Source: Candidatus Microgenomates bacterium (GTDB lineage Bacteria; Patescibacteriota; Microgenomatia; UBA8517). From it: 64,000 nt of DNA. Under the pieces are notes generated by a model that made no database searches, was not told where the DNA came from, and worked only from the letters and a program-made list of their open reading frames with translations. This document shows positions 2,990-62,120 of this stretch, one piece after another (positions within the stretch are counted from its first letter, which is position 1; each line of letters starts with the position of its first letter). Location of the stretch: assembly GCA_049523135.1 (NCBI GenBank), contig JBEKNE010000001.1, forward strand, positions 210,095-274,094. Reading direction: 5' to 3'. A program made the position numbers and the translations under genes.

Positions 2990-3271
2990 ATGGCAAGAAG
3001 TTCTAAAAAAGGGCCTTTTGTAGACCCGATACTGGTTAAAAAAATAGAGAAGGGAATGGGCTCGAAAGAAAGCCCTATCAAAACGTGGTCAAGAAGGTGT
3101 CAAATTTCACCGGAGTTTGTCGGAAAGTATTTTCAGGTTCATAACGGCCATGTTTTTATTGATGTTTTTGTGACCGAAGATATGGTTGGACACGCTTTGG
3201 GGGAATTTTCTCCCACCAGAACATTCAGAGGACACGGAGAAATCGTGAAGAGAACTTTGGAGAAAACGTAA
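2990..3271 (+). CDS. rpsS: 30S ribosomal protein S19
   Basis: [11 protein letters not shown]...[10 protein letters not shown]...[16 protein letters not shown] typical S19. Confidence 0.95.
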
Positions 3272-3275
3272 TCAT

Positions 3276-3692
3276 ATGGAAAAAGAATTTAAAGCAACAC
3301 AAAAATATCTTTTGATGAGCCCGAGAAAAATCAGGCTGGTAGTGGATGTTGTCAAAAAAATGAAACCTACCGAAGCGGTAGAAAAATTGCCTTTTGTACA
3401 AAAAAGAGCCGGTGCGGAACTTGCCAAAGTCATTAAAAGTGCTATTGCTTCCGCCAAAGCTCAGGGAATTTCCGAGACAGATTTGGTATTTAAAGAGATT
3501 CAAATAGGTGAAGGGCCAAGACTCAAAAGGGGTATCGCCGTAAGCCGCGGAATGTGGCATCCGATTAAAAAGAGAATGAGCCATATAAGAGTTATTTTGA
3601 CAATTCTTAAAAAAGAAGAGGTAAAGGCAAAAACTGAAAAAGTTATTGAAGAAAAAGTAGAAAAGAAAGGAAAAAATGGGACAAAAAGTTAA
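3276..3692 (+). CDS. rplV: 50S ribosomal protein L22 (Lys/Glu-rich C-terminal tail)
   Basis: Operon position; L22-like core with beta-hairpin region. Confidence 0.9.
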   Translation: MEKEFKATQKYLLMSPRKIRLVVDVVKKMKPTEAVEKLPFVQKRAGAELAKVIKSAIASAKAQGISETDLVFKEIQIGEGPRLKRGIAVSRGMWHPIKKRMSHIRVILTILKKEEVKAKTEKVIEEKVEKKGKNGTKS

Positions 3693-4326
3693 TCCAATCG
3701 GTATAAGAATAGGCAGTTTCCTACCTTGGAAGTCAAGGTGGTTTGCTGATCAGGGAAATTTCCGGAATTTCCTGATTGAGGACGTGAGAATCAGAAAAGA
3801 ACTAACCAAGAAGTTGAAGCTGGCAGGAGTAACCGGAGTTGAAATCGAAAGATTGCCTAAAAGCATGGTGGTAATAATTACGGTTAGCCGTCCGGGAGTT
3901 GTTATTGGTAGAGGGGGAACCGGAATAGAAGATGTTAAAAAGTACATTTTGGGAATTATGAGTGAAGTCAGGAGGAAACCTGTAAAAGATCTTAAGATTG
4001 ATATAAGGATTAATGAAGTAAAAAATCCCGAACTTTCGGCATATTTGGTTGCGGAAAGAATTGCGGGGGAAATGGAAAGAAGAATCCCCCACAGACGTGC
4101 GGTTCAGAAAGCAATTGAACGTGTGATGGCATCCGGAGCTCTTGGGGTTAAAGTAGTTGTTGCTGGTCGTATAAACGGCGCGGAAATTTCCAGAGTTGAA
4201 AAATTCCATCAGGGTTCGGTTCCAACACAAACTTTGCGCGAGAATTTGGATTATGCCCAAGTTCCGGCACTTTTGAAGAGGGGTTATGTAGGGGTAAAAG
4301 TTTGGATTCACAAAAAGCAGGAATAA
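3676..4326 (+). CDS. rpsC: 30S ribosomal protein S3
   Basis: MGQKVNPIGIRIG... KH domain start typical of S3. Confidence 0.95.
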   Translation: MGQKVNPIGIRIGSFLPWKSRWFADQGNFRNFLIEDVRIRKELTKKLKLAGVTGVEIERLPKSMVVIITVSRPGVVIGRGGTGIEDVKKYILGIMSEVRRKPVKDLKIDIRINEVKNPELSAYLVAERIAGEMERRIPHRRAVQKAIERVMASGALGVKVVVAGRINGAEISRVEKFHQGSVPTQTLRENLDYAQVPALLKRGYVGVKVWIHKKQE

Positions 4327-4339
4327 TTTATAAAGTACT

Positions 4340-4750
4340 ATGTTACAACCAAAAAGGAGAAAATATATAAAAGAATTTAGAGGCAGGCGACACGGCGTTG
4401 CAACCCGCGGGAGTGCAATTTCTTTTGGGGATATGGCAATGAAGGCTCAGGAAGTTTCATGGATCACATCAGCTCAGATTGAAGCCGCAAGACGTACAAT
4501 TACCCATGGTCTGAGAAAAGGTGGAAGAGTTTGGGTAAGAATTTTTCCTGATAAACCAATTACTGCGAGGCCCGCAGGAAAAAGAATGGGTGGAGGTAAA
4601 GGTGATATTTCAACTTATGTTGCTGTAGTGAGACCGGGAACAATCCTTTTTGAAGTTGCGGGTGCCGACCCTGAGATAGTCAAGGAAGCTTTTAGAAAAG
4701 CCGGAGCAAAATTGCCTATAAGTGTAAAGACGATTAGTAGACAGGAATAA
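4340..4750 (+). CDS. rplP: 50S ribosomal protein L16
   Basis: MLQPKRRKYIKEFRGRRHG... typical L16. Confidence 0.95.
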   Translation: MLQPKRRKYIKEFRGRRHGVATRGSAISFGDMAMKAQEVSWITSAQIEAARRTITHGLRKGGRVWVRIFPDKPITARPAGKRMGGGKGDISTYVAVVRPGTILFEVAGADPEIVKEAFRKAGAKLPISVKTISRQE

Positions 4751-17953: not shown

Positions 17954-18024
17954 CGGGGTGTAGTTCACCGGTAGAATGGGCGCACGGGGTGCGTCCGAAC
18001 TGAGTCCAATTCTCAGCACCCCGA
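17954..18024 (+). tRNA. tRNA-Pro(GGG)-like gene, 71 nt, no encoded CCA, non-canonical C33 and C55 in my hand fold
   Basis: Cloverleaf folds as acceptor CGGGGTG/CACCCCG plus A73 (typical tRNA-Pro), D arm GTTC-ACCGGTA-GAAT, anticodon arm GGCGC-ACGGGGT-GCGTC, 4-nt variable loop, T arm CTGAG-TCCAATT-CTCAG. A14, G18G19, A21 and G53-C61 are conserved. The odd loop positions may mean a degenerate copy. Confidence 0.5.
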
Positions 18025-18080
18025 CTATAGGGTATTAAGTAGGTATTGACTTCGTATTTCCTTCGGGGTGACAATTAAAT

Positions 18081-18926
18081 ATGGTTACTTCTCTTCAAAA
18101 ATGTACTTTTTGTGGAAAACCAGTATACCGTGACAATAGAAGAATTAATGAAAGTAAAAAACGTAGGTGGAGAATATTTTGTTCTCAAAAGTGCCTTGCC
18201 CTGTCACGAAGGACTCGAAAAGAGTACATATGTGCCAGAAAGGGTTGTGGAAAGCATTTCACAAGAAATCCGGGTGAATTATATAGATCAAAGATATTTT
18301 ATTGTTCCTTAAGGTGCGCTGCTTTAGTAAATAATAAGCTACGGAAGAAAATTATCCGAATATGCCCAACTTGTAACGGAAAATTTACTGGTAAAAATAA
18401 ATATTGTTCATCTGTGTGCATACCTAAACGTGGGTCTAAGTACACAAGAGAAATTGTTATAGAAATAATCACGGAATTTTATAAAAAACATGAACGAATA
18501 CCTGTAAAAAAAGAATTGTATGGTTGTTATAGAGTAGCAAGAAAATATTTTGGAACTTGGAATAAAGCCATTGAGGCCGCTGGTTATAAACCAAATCCAG
18601 TGATGTTTTCCAATAAATATATTGCAAAAGACGGAGATAAATGTGATTCTTTGGCTGAGAAGATAATTGACGATTATTTATCAAGACGGAATATTAAGCA
18701 TATACGAAATTTCCCATACCCTGGAAATGATGGGTTTAAGGTAGATTTTAAAGTTGAAGATAATTGGATTGAATTTTTTGGTTTGTCTGGGCAATTAAAA
18801 AGTTACGATCAGATTGAGAGGAGAAAGTTAAAGCTTACTAAAAAATTGGGGATCAATTTGATAAAGATTTATCCAGAAGATCTATTTCCAATAGGTAAAC
18901 TTGACAAAAAACTAGTTTTTTCTTGA
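18081..18926 (+). CDS. Homing-endonuclease-like protein: three FCS/TRASH-type zinc fingers + HEARO-like repeat + C-terminal Vsr/DUF559-like PD-(D/E)xK nuclease domain
   Basis: Zinc fingers CTFCGK..FCSQKC, CARKGCGK..YCSLRC and CPTCNG..YCSSVC. YGCYRVARKYFGTWNKAIEAAGY resembles the homing-endonuclease-associated repeat. SLAEKIIDDYL...VDFKVEDNWIEFFG resembles the DUF559/Vsr core (VDF...IEvDG). Domain calls are from memory of family consensus. Confidence 0.55.
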   Translation: MVTSLQKCTFCGKPVYRDNRRINESKKRRWRIFCSQKCLALSRRTRKEYICARKGCGKHFTRNPGELYRSKIFYCSLRCAALVNNKLRKKIIRICPTCNGKFTGKNKYCSSVCIPKRGSKYTREIVIEIITEFYKKHERIPVKKELYGCYRVARKYFGTWNKAIEAAGYKPNPVMFSNKYIAKDGDKCDSLAEKIIDDYLSRRNIKHIRNFPYPGNDGFKVDFKVEDNWIEFFGLSGQLKSYDQIERRKLKLTKKLGINLIKIYPEDLFPIGKLDKKLVFS

Positions 18927-58119: not shown

Positions 58120-58747
58120 AAGTATAAGTTTGACCGGCTGAGACTTTAACTTCATGGCTTATATAATTCAGATCGTTGAAGGCCAGGGTAGCGCTGCCGG
58201 ATTTGATGGACACCGTTACAATCGGTTTAATGGGATTTCTGGAGACGGTTGCGTCTCCGTTTAACTCCGTAAGAAGCGAGGATACCCTGATGCTAATGGG
58301 GTAGCTTCCGTTTACTATAAATTCTCCCGTGCCGCTAACTTGAGAAAAAACAACATTAGCAGGCAGAGTTTGTATGATGTCTATTTCAGTATTTTTCGAA
58401 TAGTTTATTGTGCATGAGTTTGGAAAAGTAAGAGTAAGACTTCCGCTGGCCCCGGTAGTCAAATTTTCACCCTGTTGAACTGCCTGAGGAGAATTGATTT
58501 GGGAAGATACGGTTGCGGTTCTTCCTTGCCAGTCGACTTCGCCGGACATTGTTGTAATTTCTCCCTTAAGGGACTGGCTTGGTGCATTTTCTATAGAGAA
58601 GGTTGGCGTATTTTTTGTTACGGATATGGCAGTGGGAGTGGGAACTTCCACAATATCCCGGTTTCTACTCTTGTAGAAAAGAAAACCTCCTACGGCAATC
58701 AATAAAACCGGAATGACGGTTAATATTAAGTATTTGGAAGCTTTCAT
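58085..58747 (-). CDS. Hypothetical membrane-anchored Ser/Thr-rich extracellular protein
   Basis: N-terminal TM (LILTVIPVLLIAVGGFLF), beta-rich S/T-rich body. Confidence 0.5.
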   Translation of the reverse strand: MKASKYLILTVIPVLLIAVGGFLFYKSRNRDIVEVPTPTAISVTKNTPTFSIENAPSQSLKGEITTMSGEVDWQGRTATVSSQINSPQAVQQGENLTTGASGSLTLTFPNSCTINYSKNTEIDIIQTLPANVVFSQVSGTGEFIVNGSYPISIRVSSLLTELNGDATVSRNPIKPIVTVSIKSGSATLAFNDLNYISHEVKVSAGQTYTFNYGTRKGVLK

Positions 58748-58820
58748 TTTATATAGTAATTATACTATCATCGCTAAATTTTCATCGTATTTTCAGACTT
58801 CAAAAATAAAATGATTTGAA

Positions 58821-59738
58821 TTGATAAAAAATTGTTTGAAGGTGATTGATGCAAACAAGGCCATCAATATAATAACTTTTGGTTATGTATTTGTTGTTTG
58901 TATCTACATGATTTCCCATAGAATCTGGTTTTCCCCGGATCAGTTTTTTGTTTTTGCCCTAATCGGAGCCACATTTATCGGACGGGCAGGAATTTTTCTA
59001 AAAGACTGGGTGCTTTTTATATTTCCCTACCTGGGTTATGAATTTTTGCGGGGTTTAATTCCCTTTGTCAGTAAAAATGTTCACATTTTTCCGATGATTA
59101 ATATCGACCAATTTATTTTCGGTTTTATCCCGACGGTTAAACTTCAATCCTTGCTTTATAATCCTAACCATCTTATGTGGTATGACTATGTGGCAGTAAC
59201 CCTTTATATTTGTCACTTCGTAACTCCAATGATTGTTGGGTATTTTTTCTGGTTAAAAGACAGGAAGTTTTTCAAAAAATATGCTATTGGAATTCTAGGT
59301 GTTTCTTATGCGGCTTTTATTACATACATTATTTTTCCTGCAATGCCTCCTTGGATGGCCAGCAGTTTTGGTTATATTCCGCCTGTAAAAGAAGTTACCG
59401 GAATAGTTATGTCTCATTTCTTTCCAACAACAATAAAATTGCCGTCAATTTATTCTTTTGTAGGAGGTAACTCTGTTGCGGCAATGCCCTCTCTTCATGC
59501 AGCATTCCCCTTAATGGTATTTTTCTTTCTTTATAAGTGGAATAAAAAGATGGGAATTGCCTTTATTCCTTATGTTTTAGGAGTTTGGTTTGCGGTGATT
59601 TACTTGGGGGAGCACTATTTTATAGATATGGTAATTGGGGCTCTTTACTCAACTGTTATCTTTATAATTATTGAAAAGTTAAGTAACCATGCCAAAGCCA
59701 AGTCTGTTTCTAACAAGAATTTGCTTTTCCGCCTTTGA
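58821..59738 (+). CDS. PAP2 superfamily membrane protein (phosphatase/IPC-synthase-like)
   Basis: Multi-TM with PSLHAAF and GEHYFIDMVIGA (PSGH / SRx5Hx3D-like) motifs. Confidence 0.6.
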   Translation: MIKNCLKVIDANKAINIITFGYVFVVCIYMISHRIWFSPDQFFVFALIGATFIGRAGIFLKDWVLFIFPYLGYEFLRGLIPFVSKNVHIFPMINIDQFIFGFIPTVKLQSLLYNPNHLMWYDYVAVTLYICHFVTPMIVGYFFWLKDRKFFKKYAIGILGVSYAAFITYIIFPAMPPWMASSFGYIPPVKEVTGIVMSHFFPTTIKLPSIYSFVGGNSVAAMPSLHAAFPLMVFFFLYKWNKKMGIAFIPYVLGVWFAVIYLGEHYFIDMVIGALYSTVIFIIIEKLSNHAKAKSVSNKNLLFRL

Positions 59739-59942
59739 TAGATTTTTGATTTTTGCTTCCCTTCTTAAAGCCTCAGATTTTGTTGCGAATTTTTCCTGGT
59801 AAATCAGTTTTATGGGTTTATGGCTTTTTGTGTATTTCGCCCCACGGCCCGAAAAATGTTCTTTAAACCTTTTGGCAACATTATTTGTGGAACCTGTATA
59901 GTAGCTTCCGTCGTGACAGAGGAGAATGTAAGTAAACCACAT
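59679..59942 (-). CDS. GIY-YIG nuclease family protein (small YhbQ/UPF0213-like)
   Basis: FTYILLC.DGSYYTGSTNNVAKRFKEH ... EKFATKSEALRREAKIKNLSKAEK classic GIY-YIG. Confidence 0.85.
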   Translation of the reverse strand: MWFTYILLCHDGSYYTGSTNNVAKRFKEHFSGRGAKYTKSHKPIKLIYQEKFATKSEALRREAKIKNLSKAEKQILVRNRLGFGMVT

Positions 59943-59997
59943 ATTTAAATATTACGCTTAATATTGCGGATTCGTCTAATGGTATACGTTATAATAA

Positions 59998-60804
59998 GTG
60001 ATGCTTAGAAAACCAAGAAAACACTTTTCTTGCAATTTGCTTCCCAGGACTGATCCAAGATATATTATATGGCTTAACAGTTTAAAGAAAAAACGCAGAT
60101 GTGAACCTTGGAATAAGAGTAAAACTAGATTTACTGACAAAAGAATTAAGAAAATATCAGAAACTTTCTTGAGAAAAAAGATTGACAATTTTTCTAACTG
60201 GCGGATTAATGCTAGAAATTCGGGATTAATTCCAAACCCAAACCGATCTTTTAAACATTCCAAAGAGCTAGCATTTTTAATTGGCATGACCTTGGGTGAT
60301 GGTTGCTTACAAAAAATATCCAGAACAGAATCTTTAAGAATTACATTAGGATCGAATAGACCATTATTAATTGCCTACACAGCAAACATAGTTGGAAAAG
60401 TAATCAACAAAAAACCATCGGTTATTAAGCGCAATTGCTCAAACTGTTTTAATGTCACTCTTTATCAAAATAATCTAAGCAAAAGATTAGAAGTACCTTT
60501 GGGTGCCAGGAAAAATTTAAAAATAATGTTACCAAATTGGATTTGGTCAAAAAAATCATTCCTTGTCTCGGCCTTAAGCGGATTGTTTGAAGCTGAGGGA
60601 TCATTCTCAATACATAAACCAACTTATACTTACAATTTTAGTTTTTCTAATGTGAACGTTAGTTTACTTGACGAAGTAGAAAAAGCACTAAAATTATTAA
60701 ATTTTCATCCGGAAAGGAGATCAAAAGAGGTTAGATTAAGAAAAAAAGAGGAAGCTTTAAGGTTTGAAAAACTAATTAGCTTCAGGAATTATCCTCTGAT
60801 ATAA
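59998..60804 (+). CDS. LAGLIDADG-family homing endonuclease (double-motif, freestanding)
   Basis: Two LAGLIDADG motifs, LAFLIGMTLGDGCL and LSGLFEAEGSF, ~100 aa apart; basic N-terminal ~85 aa. Confidence 0.8.
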   Translation: MMLRKPRKHFSCNLLPRTDPRYIIWLNSLKKKRRCEPWNKSKTRFTDKRIKKISETFLRKKIDNFSNWRINARNSGLIPNPNRSFKHSKELAFLIGMTLGDGCLQKISRTESLRITLGSNRPLLIAYTANIVGKVINKKPSVIKRNCSNCFNVTLYQNNLSKRLEVPLGARKNLKIMLPNWIWSKKSFLVSALSGLFEAEGSFSIHKPTYTYNFSFSNVNVSLLDEVEKALKLLNFHPERRSKEVRLRKKEEALRFEKLISFRNYPLI

Positions 60805-60817
60805 TAAGGCGGTATAT

Positions 60818-60892
60818 TGCGGGATCGTCTAACCGGTAGGACACGGCCCCCTGGAGGCTGGTATCGGGGTTCAAATCCCTGTCCCGCAGCCA
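60818..60892 (+). tRNA. tRNA-Gln (anticodon CUG by hand fold), 75 nt with encoded CCA
   Basis: Cloverleaf folds as acceptor TGCGGGA/TCCCGCA (U1-A72) + G73 + CCA, D arm GTCT-AACCGGTA-GGAC, anticodon arm CGGCC-CCCTGGA-GGCTG, T arm CGGGG-TTCAAAT-CCCTG. Position 33 reads C in my fold, which is unusual. Confidence 0.7.
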
Positions 60893-61083
60893 ACACGTGC
60901 ACCCCTGTGACCGTGAAGCCTAGAATAGCCCGAAAATACACTTAAAACTGCTAGTTTTTACCTCAAACATTCGTACTACACGCTCGCTGTTCGGAGAAAG
61001 ACTATAAAAATACAATCAACGTGCACTTAATGAAGTTATAGTGCAGTTATAAAGGAATGGAGTAAAATTATAAGAGTTTAATA

Positions 61084-61149
61084 ATGTTAAAAATCAAAGA
61101 CAAGGGAATAGTTTTAGAAGAAAGTAATTTGGAATCTGAAAAACTTTAA
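61084..61149 (+). pseudogene. Original N-terminal segment of the first GH130 gene, orphaned from its body by a stop and frameshift
   Basis: atgttaaaaatcaaagacaagggaatagtt... = MLKIKDKGIVLEESNLESEKL*, near-identical to the start of the gene at 62124 (MLKIKDEGIILEKTNLEFENK); out of frame (+2) with the ORF at 61155. Confidence 0.6.
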
Positions 61150-61154
61150 ATAAA

Positions 61155-62120
61155 ATGGAAATAGGAGTTGAAAATACGGAAAATGTCACTTTTTCCCCTG
61201 CGATTGAAAAAAATCCGGAAATTAAGGCTGCAATGAGTATGGCAGTAGTTTCTATGGAAGGATACTACGATGCTCTATACAGACAAGTCACTAAAGCAAA
61301 ACCCGGAGAACTAATTCCGGAATCTGTTATAGCTTTTGCATCAAGCCCCAATGGGGTGGATTTCGCAAGAAGCGGAATGGTGCCACTAAAACCAACCACG
61401 GAAATAAATAGTATTGATCGACTAGCAGTAGAAGATCCAACTATTGTGAAATTAGATGGTAAATATTATGTTTTCCATTCTGCCGTCAGTCCGAAAGTAA
61501 GCGGGGAGGGTGTGCAAGTTGCTATCCAGGTGGTAGAAGGAGATTCATTGGGGCATTTGGGGACCGAAAAAAAGGTTGTTCTGACTCCCAAAGATGTCCA
61601 AGATTCTTTGGGCAAAAAAGTTGATATGGTTAAGGAACCGGAATTTTATTTCGGTAAAGACGGACTTTGGCATATGATTTACGAACACACAGGAAGAGGG
61701 ATTTCGGAAATTGCAACTGCCGAAAGCCCCCAATTGACCGGTCCGTATAGGAATAACCGTCCCCTTATGGAAGTTCGCCCGAATGCCTGGGACTCCCAAC
61801 ACCTTAGTCCCGGCCCACTGCTTTTTACTTCAAAAGGGGACATTTTAATGTTTTACAACGGCAGAGGCCCCAAAAGTTCTGAGGATCAAACGCCAAGTTG
61901 GTCGATCGGACATGTTATTATTGACGCTAGTACGGGGGTTGTCAGTGACCGCGCAGAGTCCCCAATTATTCGACCTTCCGATGAAATTGGTCCGGAAAAT
62001 CAGCTGATCTCATTTGCCAATTCAATAACATCAACCGAAGGAACCAAAAACAACAGACTTTATTATACGGTAGCCGATACGCGTTCAGCCGTTGCCAGTA
62101 TTTTTATAAACGGTATATAA
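61155..62120 (+). CDS. GH130-family (DUF377) glycosidase/phosphorylase-like protein, paralog 1 (N-terminus possibly disrupted)
   Basis: Beta-propeller GH130-like motifs (EDPTIV..DGKYY, ...WSIGHVIID); upstream orphan N-terminal fragment. Confidence 0.65.
   Translation: MEIGVENTENVTFSPAIEKNPEIKAAMSMAVVSMEGYYDALYRQVTKAKPGELIPESVIAFASSPNGVDFARSGMVPLKPTTEINSIDRLAVEDPTIVKLDGKYYVFHSAVSPKVSGEGVQVAIQVVEGDSLGHLGTEKKVVLTPKDVQDSLGKKVDMVKEPEFYFGKDGLWHMIYEHTGRGISEIATAESPQLTGPYRNNRPLMEVRPNAWDSQHLSPGPLLFTSKGDILMFYNGRGPKSSEDQTPSWSIGHVIIDASTGVVSDRAESPIIRPSDEIGPENQLISFANSITSTEGTKNNRLYYTVADTRSAVASIFINGI

Follow-up and report, generated by a model that had tools for sequence, protein, structure and literature searches.

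How can a gene for a homing endonuclease persist at a tRNA gene when neither an intron nor an intein carries it? Homing endonuclease genes have, to our knowledge, been thought to survive in essential genes only by means of self-splicing introns or inteins. The question is raised by a 64,000-nucleotide stretch of contig JBEKNE010000001.1 from a Candidatus Microgenomates bacterium (hereafter the window), in which an open reading frame (ORF) for a protein of the LAGLIDADG superfamily ends 13 nt before a gene for tRNA-Gln(CUG). The ORF sits inside a partly duplicated tRNA-Gln gene, and the same arrangement with tRNA-Gln(CUG) recurs wherever related loci have sequence on the downstream side. We consider it likely that the locus is an intron-less homing endonuclease cassette that lives in the tRNA-Gln(CUG) gene and would target it, the binding and cleavage being predicted from sequence comparisons.

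The ORF is bracketed by a 5' fragment of tRNA-Gln on the left and by a complete tRNA-Gln on the right. A repeat search paired positions 59961-59979 (ATATTGCGGATTCGTCTAA) with positions 60814-60832 (ATATTGCGGGATCGTCTAA), which correspond to the 5' flank of the tRNA and its nucleotides 1-21, i.e. the acceptor strand and the D-arm. With one indel the match extends through the D-loop (TGGTA, to 59984), and then ends. The leftover fragment consists of a 4-nt flank (ATAT), a decayed acceptor strand TGCGGAT (59965-59971), and a 13-nt core TCGTCTAATGGTA (59972-59984) equivalent to tRNA positions 8-21; it is the only match with at most one mismatch in the window. A 19-nt imperfect repeat is not compelling in the window alone, and the case is made by the comparative data. 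The first-pass annotation of this DNA, made by a model from the letters, had missed the repeat and called the nuclease gene freestanding. The description holds as far as introns are concerned, since no Rfam intron family matched at E<=10 over positions 58500-62000, a search that includes the group I check proposed for the flanks, and 12 related loci searched at the gathering threshold contained only tRNAs and one SAM riboswitch; it does not hold for the position of the ORF, which lies between the leftover and the complete tRNA.

The window protein belongs to the LAGLIDADG superfamily by motif, profile and fold. The ORF encodes 268 amino acids (aa) from a GTG codon at 59998, as first annotated, or 267 aa from an ATG codon at 60001; the latter start is favoured by cross-locus comparison and by the public annotation (record P0001, 'LAGLIDADG family homing endonuclease, Candidatus Microgenomates bacterium', 267 aa). 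The proposed Pfam check gave a match to LAGLIDADG_3 in two stretches (37.4 bits against a cut-off of 22.5, E=3e-9), whereas the LAGLIDADG_1, LAGLIDADG_2 and WhiA models scored below their cut-offs. An alignment of 20 sequences defines the family motifs LAxLIGxxLGDG and LxGLFEAEG, a conserved basic N-terminal segment (PWNKGKT..VKKISETF..KIDNF..WR) and, in some members, an extra CxxC...H...H segment. In the AlphaFold model (mean predicted local distance difference test score 87, above 90 in the core) residues 1-88 form a basic helical extension with three helices, and residues 89-260 form two LAGLIDADG domains, each an alpha-beta-beta-alpha-beta-beta-alpha unit, in a pseudo-dimeric fold. The two motifs and the basic extension noticed on first reading are thus borne out by the alignment and the model. 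Foldseek comparison with the PDB gave I-DmoI (template modelling score ~0.65-0.70 normalised to the target) and bI3 maturase, PI-PfuI, I-Tsp061I, I-AniI and I-SceI, all with probability 1.00, and WhiA was also among the fold matches; sequence-profile matches to PDB entries (I-AniI, I-DmoI) were weak. The N-terminal extension matched nothing in Pfam or NCBIfam; it may resemble NUMOD3-type motifs.

Retention of the catalytic positions points to an active enzyme. Among the 120 best family members, D101 of the LGDG motif is D in all 120, and E200 of the EAEG motif is E in 119 and D in one. WhiA-type domesticated LAGLIDADG proteins have lost the catalytic acidic residues and gained a C-terminal helix-turn-helix domain; the AlphaFold model of the window protein has no extra C-terminal domain. 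The conserved acidic residues and the confidently modelled I-DmoI-like fold are signs of an active endonuclease, for which cleavage is predicted. Single-chain enzymes of this class cut specific targets of 14-22 bp and produce 3' overhangs of 4 nt. Intein splicing blocks are not evident either: the ORF stands alone with its own start, and matches to intein models are marginal and partial (NCBIfam intein-containing models at E=0.007-0.02, far below their cut-offs).

The family is compact. Its members number over 300 proteins, and after clustering at 50% identity the searched library contains 17 representatives at E<=1e-30 (91 at E<=1e-10). We scanned one genome per species and found 135 species-level genomes that carry a member, 80 of whose loci were kept for analysis. 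They come from Microgenomates, Parcubacteria, WWE3, Berkelbacteria and a few contigs labelled Omnitrophota. ARAGORN placed tRNA-Gln(CUG) directly downstream on the same strand in 74 of the 80; the spacing ranges from an overlap of 37 nt with the ORF to a gap of 40 nt. Two further loci (L002 and L034) have a tRNA-Gln broken by runs of N, and the other unlinked loci end at a contig edge, so that the linkage holds in 76/76 loci where sequence is available. The flanking genes vary among lineages; in many Parcubacteria ftsX lies upstream and a tRNA-Thr gene ~3 kb further up. Linkage to tRNA-Gln(CUG) thus defines the whole protein family across the Candidate Phyla Radiation (CPR), far beyond chance. 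That an unrelated endonuclease gene should merely happen to lie beside a tRNA in one genome is refuted by this linkage together with the leftover-core data below, and we give it practically no credence. Scaffold gaps or contig ends fall inside tRNA-Gln in three loci (L002 3839-3908; L034 3664-3679; L211, end at 2443); these could reflect repeat-related assembly trouble or population heterogeneity.

The two parts of the leftover are conserved very differently. With up to two mismatches, the core was found upstream of the ORF in 50/73 loci (exact in 19), compared with 1/122 control regions of the same size. The seven acceptor-strand bases that precede it carry 0.1-0.6 bits per position in the 50 loci. 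The D-arms of the adjacent real tRNAs are variable (GTCT, TGCT, GTGT, GGCT, GTGC and others), and the core is exact in only 2/74 of them. We conclude that the core is under its own constraint, because a neutral relic would not keep 13 bases and lose the adjacent seven. The possibility that the leftover is a functional 5' exon or a gene-converted copy was rejected, as its acceptor part is decayed and matches that of its own tRNA no better than those of other tRNAs.

The core is also placed at fixed distances from a predicted promoter of the nuclease gene. A TANNNT hexamer lies 4-8 nt before the ATG codon in 40 of 55 loci, compared with 29% in shuffled sequences; the spacing is exactly 6 nt in 30 loci, and a TG extension is present in 34. 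This geometry would fit a leaderless or near-leaderless nuclease mRNA. The gap between core and hexamer is quantised: 21 nt in 19 loci, 10-11 nt in eight, and a 2-nt overlap in four. In the loci most closely related to the window, TATAAT follows directly on the D-loop TGGTA, whereas in the window itself 5 nt separate TATAAT from the core on one side and from the ATG on the other. The leftover is probably the left half of the nuclease target, reused as the operator to which the enzyme is predicted to bind.

The presumed target is suggested by comparison with nuclease-free loci. A 17-mer that extends the core by the bases following it in a genuine tRNA (TCGTCTAATGGTAGGAC) was sought in metagenome contigs and yielded 120 loci. 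Nearly all of them are genes for tRNA-Gln, with the CUG and UUG isoacceptors both represented, in genomes of 27% to 74% GC. The sequence TCGTCTAATGGTAGGAC is the standard bacterial tRNA-Gln D-arm. None of the 120 has the nuclease gene beside it, including 76 loci (41 of them CUG) whose upstream sequence is 900 nt or longer. Conversely, none of the nuclease loci L001-L090 contains the canonical 17-mer. In the window the D-arm reads TCGTCTAACCGGTAGGAC, with the D-loop change AAT to AACC. The nuclease gene and the canonical D-arm are therefore mutually exclusive in these data; the absence of the 17-mer from resident alleles is to be read with the limit that its role as the target is something we infer.

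Empty sites were found in close relatives of an occupied locus. In L029, a Staskawiczbacteria-type genome, the ftsX stop codon is followed after 3 nt by a leftover fragment (TGTCGGGTCATTTAATGGTA), the nuclease gene and tRNA-Gln. Ten FtsX proteins with 68-91% identity to that of L029 were picked without regard to tRNA, and none of the ten loci has a LAGLIDADG gene, which answers the call of the first-pass annotation for a presence/absence comparison at this tRNA. The canonical 17-mer is present in 7/10 of these nuclease-free relatives and in 0/76 nuclease-linked tRNAs (Fisher P ~2e-8, calculated by hand; the ten relatives form one clade, so that independence is overstated). In L215, L216 and L221 ftsX is followed by an intact canonical tRNA-Gln(CUG) without a nuclease gene, and the pattern scan added two more empty sites of this kind, with an intact tRNA-Gln(CUG) after ftsX (L176, L192). 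In L211, the closest relative, the canonical tRNA begins 3 nt after ftsX and the contig ends inside it. L220 has a canonical tRNA-Gln(CUG) after a short leftover-like fragment (TGCGGGTTTAATGG) and no nuclease ORF. Two other relatives (L213, L219) have, at the same ftsX site, a leftover, a GIY-YIG gene of 80-81 aa and a complete canonical tRNA. The site between ftsX and tRNA-Gln(CUG) thus exists as occupied and empty alleles in related genomes, as is characteristic of a mobile element. The earlier suggestion that tRNA loci serve as landing sites for nuclease genes stands for tRNA-Gln, with empty, LAGLIDADG and GIY-YIG alleles at the ftsX site, though as a property of the family and not of this genome.

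Two other tRNA-Gln-like genes are irregular in other ways, and neither is called by ARAGORN. One (L116, oriented copy ~440-560) lies in a tRNA cluster and has a ~60-nt insertion after the D-arm; the other (L156, oriented copy ~2045-2100) resembles tRNA-Gln(UUG) and loses similarity after the anticodon arm.

The nuclease gene is dispensable and differs in composition from its surroundings. A single in-frame nonsense codon interrupts an otherwise aligned ORF in L066 and L070 (both 3001-3684), and the gene is therefore dispensable; L066 is the complete genome of WWE3 RAAC2 (CP006914.1), with the stop at the conserved Trp of IDNFxxWR. In both cases the downstream tRNA-Gln is intact. The GC content of the ORF is 0.358 compared with 0.423 in the flanks (69 loci), and 0.316 compared with 0.39 in the window. 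Carriage of the family by phages was considered and rejected, as a scan of IMG/VR viral contigs returned only one relative, 23% identical.

We propose the following mechanism. The cassette would consist of a promoter, the LAGLIDADG ORF and a replacement for the tRNA 5' flank and its first ~21-24 nt. On insertion it would break the tRNA gene in the D-arm and displace the original 5' fragment, which would remain upstream as the leftover; the replacement 5' copy, joined to the old 3' part, would give a working tRNA. The enzyme may recognise a nuclease-free tRNA-Gln(CUG) gene across positions ~8-35, including the canonical D-arm, and may cut near positions 21-25, where the similarity of the leftover stops; double-strand-break repair from an occupied allele would then copy the cassette in. 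Immunity of the resident tRNA would come from its D-arm, which departs from the canonical sequence in every case. The leftover, with only the left half-site, could be bound and not cut, and a role as an autorepression operator, as in I-TevI, is suggested by its overlap with the nuclease promoter, the helical phasing of the two being fixed. We speculate that the direct repeats could also allow precise loss of the cassette, regenerating a sensitive tRNA.

Several observations weigh against this proposal. The target site is one that we infer from distribution alone, and if tRNA-Gln(UUG) keeps the canonical D-arm in nuclease-bearing genomes, the enzyme must discriminate in some other way. Three loci that lack the nuclease gene (L212, L214, L218) have D-arm variants too, and the tRNA of L212 is the same as that of L029. 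The acceptor part of the leftover is no closer to its own tRNA than to those of other loci (permutation P=0.11). The promoter elements of the window have no statistical support of their own: a two-hexamer scan found 7 promoter-like sites in the window compared with 4.8 expected, none of them at the ORF start, and the promoter assignment is a matter of cross-locus conservation. L094, L177 and L181 have leftover tRNA-Gln 5' fragments upstream of an intact tRNA-Gln and lack a nuclease ORF; the fragments may be what lost cassettes left behind, or some other process may have duplicated the tRNA end. In the population of the window there is no presence/absence polymorphism, as eight contigs with an identical protein are identical across the locus. 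Finally, the C-terminal 225 residues of the nuclease have a mean identity of 55% compared with 40% for FtsX of the same genomes, and the two divergences are correlated (Spearman 0.42). The higher conservation is ambiguous, as it fits either constraint with vertical descent or a more recent spread; long vertical inheritance or a host-useful role is possible.

These last points bear on the strongest rival, in which an ancient insertion was fixed early in the CPR and the LAGLIDADG protein was domesticated for a host function, such as control of tRNA-Gln(CUG) and of its own expression through the leftover site, homing having ended. Perfect tRNA linkage over very deep lineages, a protein that exceeds FtsX in conservation and whose divergence in part follows that of the host, a leftover core kept as a DNA element at fixed promoter phasing, and the lack of polymorphism in the population of the window would all be expected, and WhiA, which is among the fold matches, is itself a LAGLIDADG-derived transcription factor. 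A domesticated protein would, however, hardly keep both catalytic-position acidic residues invariant, given their loss in WhiA-type proteins; nor would it be expected to be patchy among close relatives (0/10 around L029), to be inactivated by nonsense codons, once in a complete genome, or to be encoded by an ORF more AT-rich than its flanks. The canonical D-arm is missing exactly where the gene is present, as active cleavage predicts. We therefore regard domestication as unlikely, while still a reading to be taken seriously. A host-level system, in which the enzyme would cut any DNA with the canonical tRNA-Gln D-arm while the cell's own tRNA is recoded, i.e. a self/non-self nuclease, seems to us rather improbable. 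In these ultra-small, host-dependent bacteria it could use foreign or host-cell DNA as its substrate, and the 17-mer is common to very diverse bacteria; C33-type oddities of the tRNA (see below) may then be part of the recoding, and the half-site switch might also tune expression of tRNA-Gln(CUG).

A somewhat fainter prospect is that slippage, palindromic elements or recombinase integration duplicated the tRNA-Gln 5' end, and that the nuclease gene fills a permissive gap without targeting. The ORF-less leftovers, tandem in L094 and single in L177 and L181, GC-rich palindromes in the D-loop (L213, L219, L220), and serine recombinase genes directly beside tRNA-Gln (L212) or in its vicinity (L083) speak for such a process. 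It would not account for the 76/76 linkage of one protein family to one tRNA isoacceptor, for the absence of the canonical D-arm from nuclease-linked tRNAs, or for a leftover core that is kept while the acceptor part decays, and the ~850-bp unit contains no recombinase gene in the ORF list. Very improbable, finally, is a self-splicing intron that carries the ORF, with the leftover as the true 5' exon of a split tRNA-Gln. Such an intron would explain a tRNA 5' fragment upstream and tRNA sequence downstream, and group I introns are reported from bacterial tRNA genes (PMC3984707). Yet the downstream tRNA is complete by itself, the acceptor strand of the leftover is decayed in many loci and in the window would mispair at 2/7 positions, and a predicted promoter lies between leftover and ORF. 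On these grounds and the negative Rfam searches in the window and the 12 related loci, embedding in a group I or group II intron was rejected.

The tRNA-Gln(CUG) of the window folds into a cloverleaf with a CUG anticodon, a U1-A72 pair and G73 (ARAGORN, Rfam). As had been read by hand in the first-pass annotation, its anticodon loop CCCUGGA (60849-60855) has C33, at 60850, in place of the near-universal U33. An independent contig from a related species (L081 1897-1968) has the identical tRNA, C33 included, and the same C33 loop occurs in an unrelated Parcubacteria lineage (L029 3284-3355 and L212 2498-2569). The L029 tRNA with C33 is called by ARAGORN and is absent from the Rfam matches above the gathering threshold for that locus; the window tRNA, which also has C33, scores ~49 bits. 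U33 is found in 72/74 nuclease-linked tRNA-Gln(CUG) genes and in 58/58 others. C33 as a mutation that escapes the nuclease found no support: 2/74 linked compared with 0/58 other genes are too few for a call, and L212 has a C33 tRNA, identical to that of L029, without the nuclease gene.

An extended -10-like element, TGATATAAT, lies 12 nt upstream of the tRNA; it has no statistical support alone in the two-hexamer scan and suggests that the tRNA may have its own promoter. Co-transcription with the nuclease gene, which had been called probable, is possible because no terminator-like site was found in a scan of the window, with the element just mentioned as a possible additional promoter for the tRNA. 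On the 3' side, the match of the window with contigs that encode an identical nuclease (L083 and L084) breaks off at ~61003, ~110 nt past the tRNA; beyond this point the contigs carry a 339-aa ORF and a large serine recombinase instead of GH130 genes. In L212 a serine recombinase gene overlaps the 3' end of tRNA-Gln. The 3' side of tRNA-Gln thus appears to be an integration site as well.

Features of the tRNA-Gln(CUG) locus and its neighbourhood, in coordinates of the window.
Feature	Position	Strand	Evidence
PAP2-family gene	58821-59738	+	ORF list
GIY-YIG gene, YhbQ-like, small, single-domain, 87 aa	59679-59942	-	ORF; Pfam GIY-YIG E=4.8e-22
Leftover ('orphan') tRNA-Gln 5' fragment, through D-loop	59961-59984	+	Direct repeat with 60814-60832
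-10-like TATAAT, predicted nuclease promoter	59990-59995	+	Read from sequence; comparative support
LAGLIDADG homing endonuclease gene	60001-60804 (ATG) or 59998-60804 (GTG)	+	ORF, Pfam, alignment, model
LAGLIDADG motif 1 LAFLIGMTLGDG, catalytic-position D101	60268-60303	+	Family alignment
LAGLIDADG motif 2 LSGLFEAEG, catalytic-position E200	60574-60600	+	Family alignment
TGATATAAT, extended -10-like element overlapping ORF stop codon	60797-60805	+	Read from sequence
Complete tRNA-Gln(CUG), encoded CCA	60818-60892	+	ARAGORN; Rfam tRNA 49.3 bits

The small GIY-YIG gene to the left was correctly identified on first reading and wrongly placed in a convergent orientation: with its start at 59942 on the reverse strand and that of the LAGLIDADG gene at 59998 or 60001 on the forward strand, the two form a divergent pair, 55 nt apart when the ORF is counted from 59998. 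It is with the PAP2 gene upstream that the GIY-YIG gene is convergent, in a tail-to-tail overlap of 60 nt (59679-59738). In a tblastn search of the 80 loci with the window GIY-YIG protein, L020 was the only locus besides the window with an adjacent match, and the matches in L033 and L035 lay at a distance; according to its gene table, L081 is arranged like the window. A conserved partnership of GIY-YIG with the LAGLIDADG family was rejected, adjacency being too rare. The window protein is 38% identical to the GIY-YIG protein (Pfam E=1.5e-15) embedded in the duplicated tRNA-Gln of L213, where the unit spans 2419-2785; that of L219 spans 2216-2599. On the reverse strand of L091 an orphan fragment and an insert precede tRNA-Gln(UUG). 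GIY-YIG genes seem to use the same duplication route at the same tRNA.

Other small insertions occur at tRNA-Gln. GC-rich palindromic mini-insertions, e.g. CCCCGCCTTAGCGGGGTCCCGCTGTGGCGGG, break tRNA-Gln fragments or a tRNA-Gln(UUG)-like gene in the D-arm or just before it (L213 2438-2468, L219 ~2222-2265, L220 ~2400-2440). They are nearly identical between different contigs and may be a small mobile element with the same target. In L094 (oriented copy 4207-4663) there are three tandem 126-nt repeats, each of which begins with a leftover fragment. At another tRNA of the window, a gene at 18081-18926 on the forward strand follows tRNA-Pro(GGG) (17954-18025) after 55 nt and encodes a protein of 281 aa in which several zinc-ribbon-like Cys-pair repeats accompany a single Pfam HNH_repeat (E=1e-9), a 'homing endonuclease associated repeat'. 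Pfam and NCBIfam searches detected no nuclease domain in it, and the gene, which had been cited as a second tRNA-associated endonuclease, gives little support to a genome-wide pattern.

Known systems share parts of this arrangement. The window protein resembles the single-chain LAGLIDADG enzymes I-DmoI, I-AniI, I-SceI and PI-PfuI in its two motifs, acidic residues, double fold and LAGLIDADG_3 match; it is 16-22% identical to them, adds a basic helical N-terminal extension of ~88 aa, and is encoded in a bacterial tRNA gene without an intron or intein. Integrative elements insert in tRNA genes and carry a replacement segment, so that a partial direct repeat flanks the insert. They are kilobases long, encode integrases and usually restore the 3' part of the tRNA. 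The tRNA-Gln unit likewise has a tRNA gene as target, a flanking partial repeat and an intact tRNA as outcome, whereas it is ~850 bp long, encodes a nuclease only and restores the 5' part.

Among intron-less cases, the gene of the free-standing GIY-YIG enzyme SegB of phage T4 lies in a tRNA gene cluster and spreads by 'intronless homing' (PMC2330249, PMC2988022). The two systems are alike in the lack of an intron or intein, the association with tRNA, the protection of the resident allele by sequence differences and the co-conversion of flanking markers, the last two being predicted here; SegB lies between phage tRNA genes, whereas the LAGLIDADG gene interrupts a chromosomal tRNA and would repair it by a 5' duplication. 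In fungal mitochondria, C-terminal duplicates of atp6 and cob lie beside LAGLIDADG and GIY-YIG ORFs (PMC6279837). There too a nuclease ORF lies between a gene and its partial duplicate and gene function survives the insertion, although the genes are protein-coding and organellar and it is the 3' end that is duplicated; here a tRNA on a bacterial chromosome has its 5' end duplicated, and the duplicate is conserved as an element. The operator of I-TevI resembles its homing site and overlaps its own promoter (PMC2988022), as the leftover, a presumed target-like sequence, does for the nuclease gene; I-TevI is a GIY-YIG enzyme, and the operator role proposed here is predicted from conservation and helical phasing. 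Within the CPR, LAGLIDADG genes were reported in rRNA insertion sequences and introns, in a survey that does not mention tRNA (PMC11270868). Radiation and superfamily are the same, and again a structural RNA gene is invaded; many of the LAGLIDADG genes in rRNA genes lie within introns, whereas the tRNA-Gln family has none and its host gene would be rescued by duplication. In none of segB, the fungal duplicates and the integrative elements do all four features occur together: a LAGLIDADG gene, a host tRNA on a bacterial chromosome, a duplicated 5' end and conservation of a half-site. In the literature searched, coverage of which is incomplete, we found no earlier description of tRNA-Gln-linked LAGLIDADG genes in the CPR.

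The family thus appears to represent a third route in bacteria, besides introns and inteins, by which a homing endonuclease gene can live in an essential gene: the tRNA gene is interrupted and repaired by a short 5' duplication. It would explain a recurrent oddity of annotation and assembly at CPR tRNA-Gln loci. The tRNA-Gln D-arm, around positions 8-35, is the predicted target of what may be a new natural meganuclease scaffold, and the leftover core is a candidate case of a target half-site reused as the operator of the enzyme itself. For the biology of these bacteria, the loci would tie selfish nucleases to the evolution of tRNA sequence, with recoding of the D-arm at every occupied locus and the rare C33 in a few.

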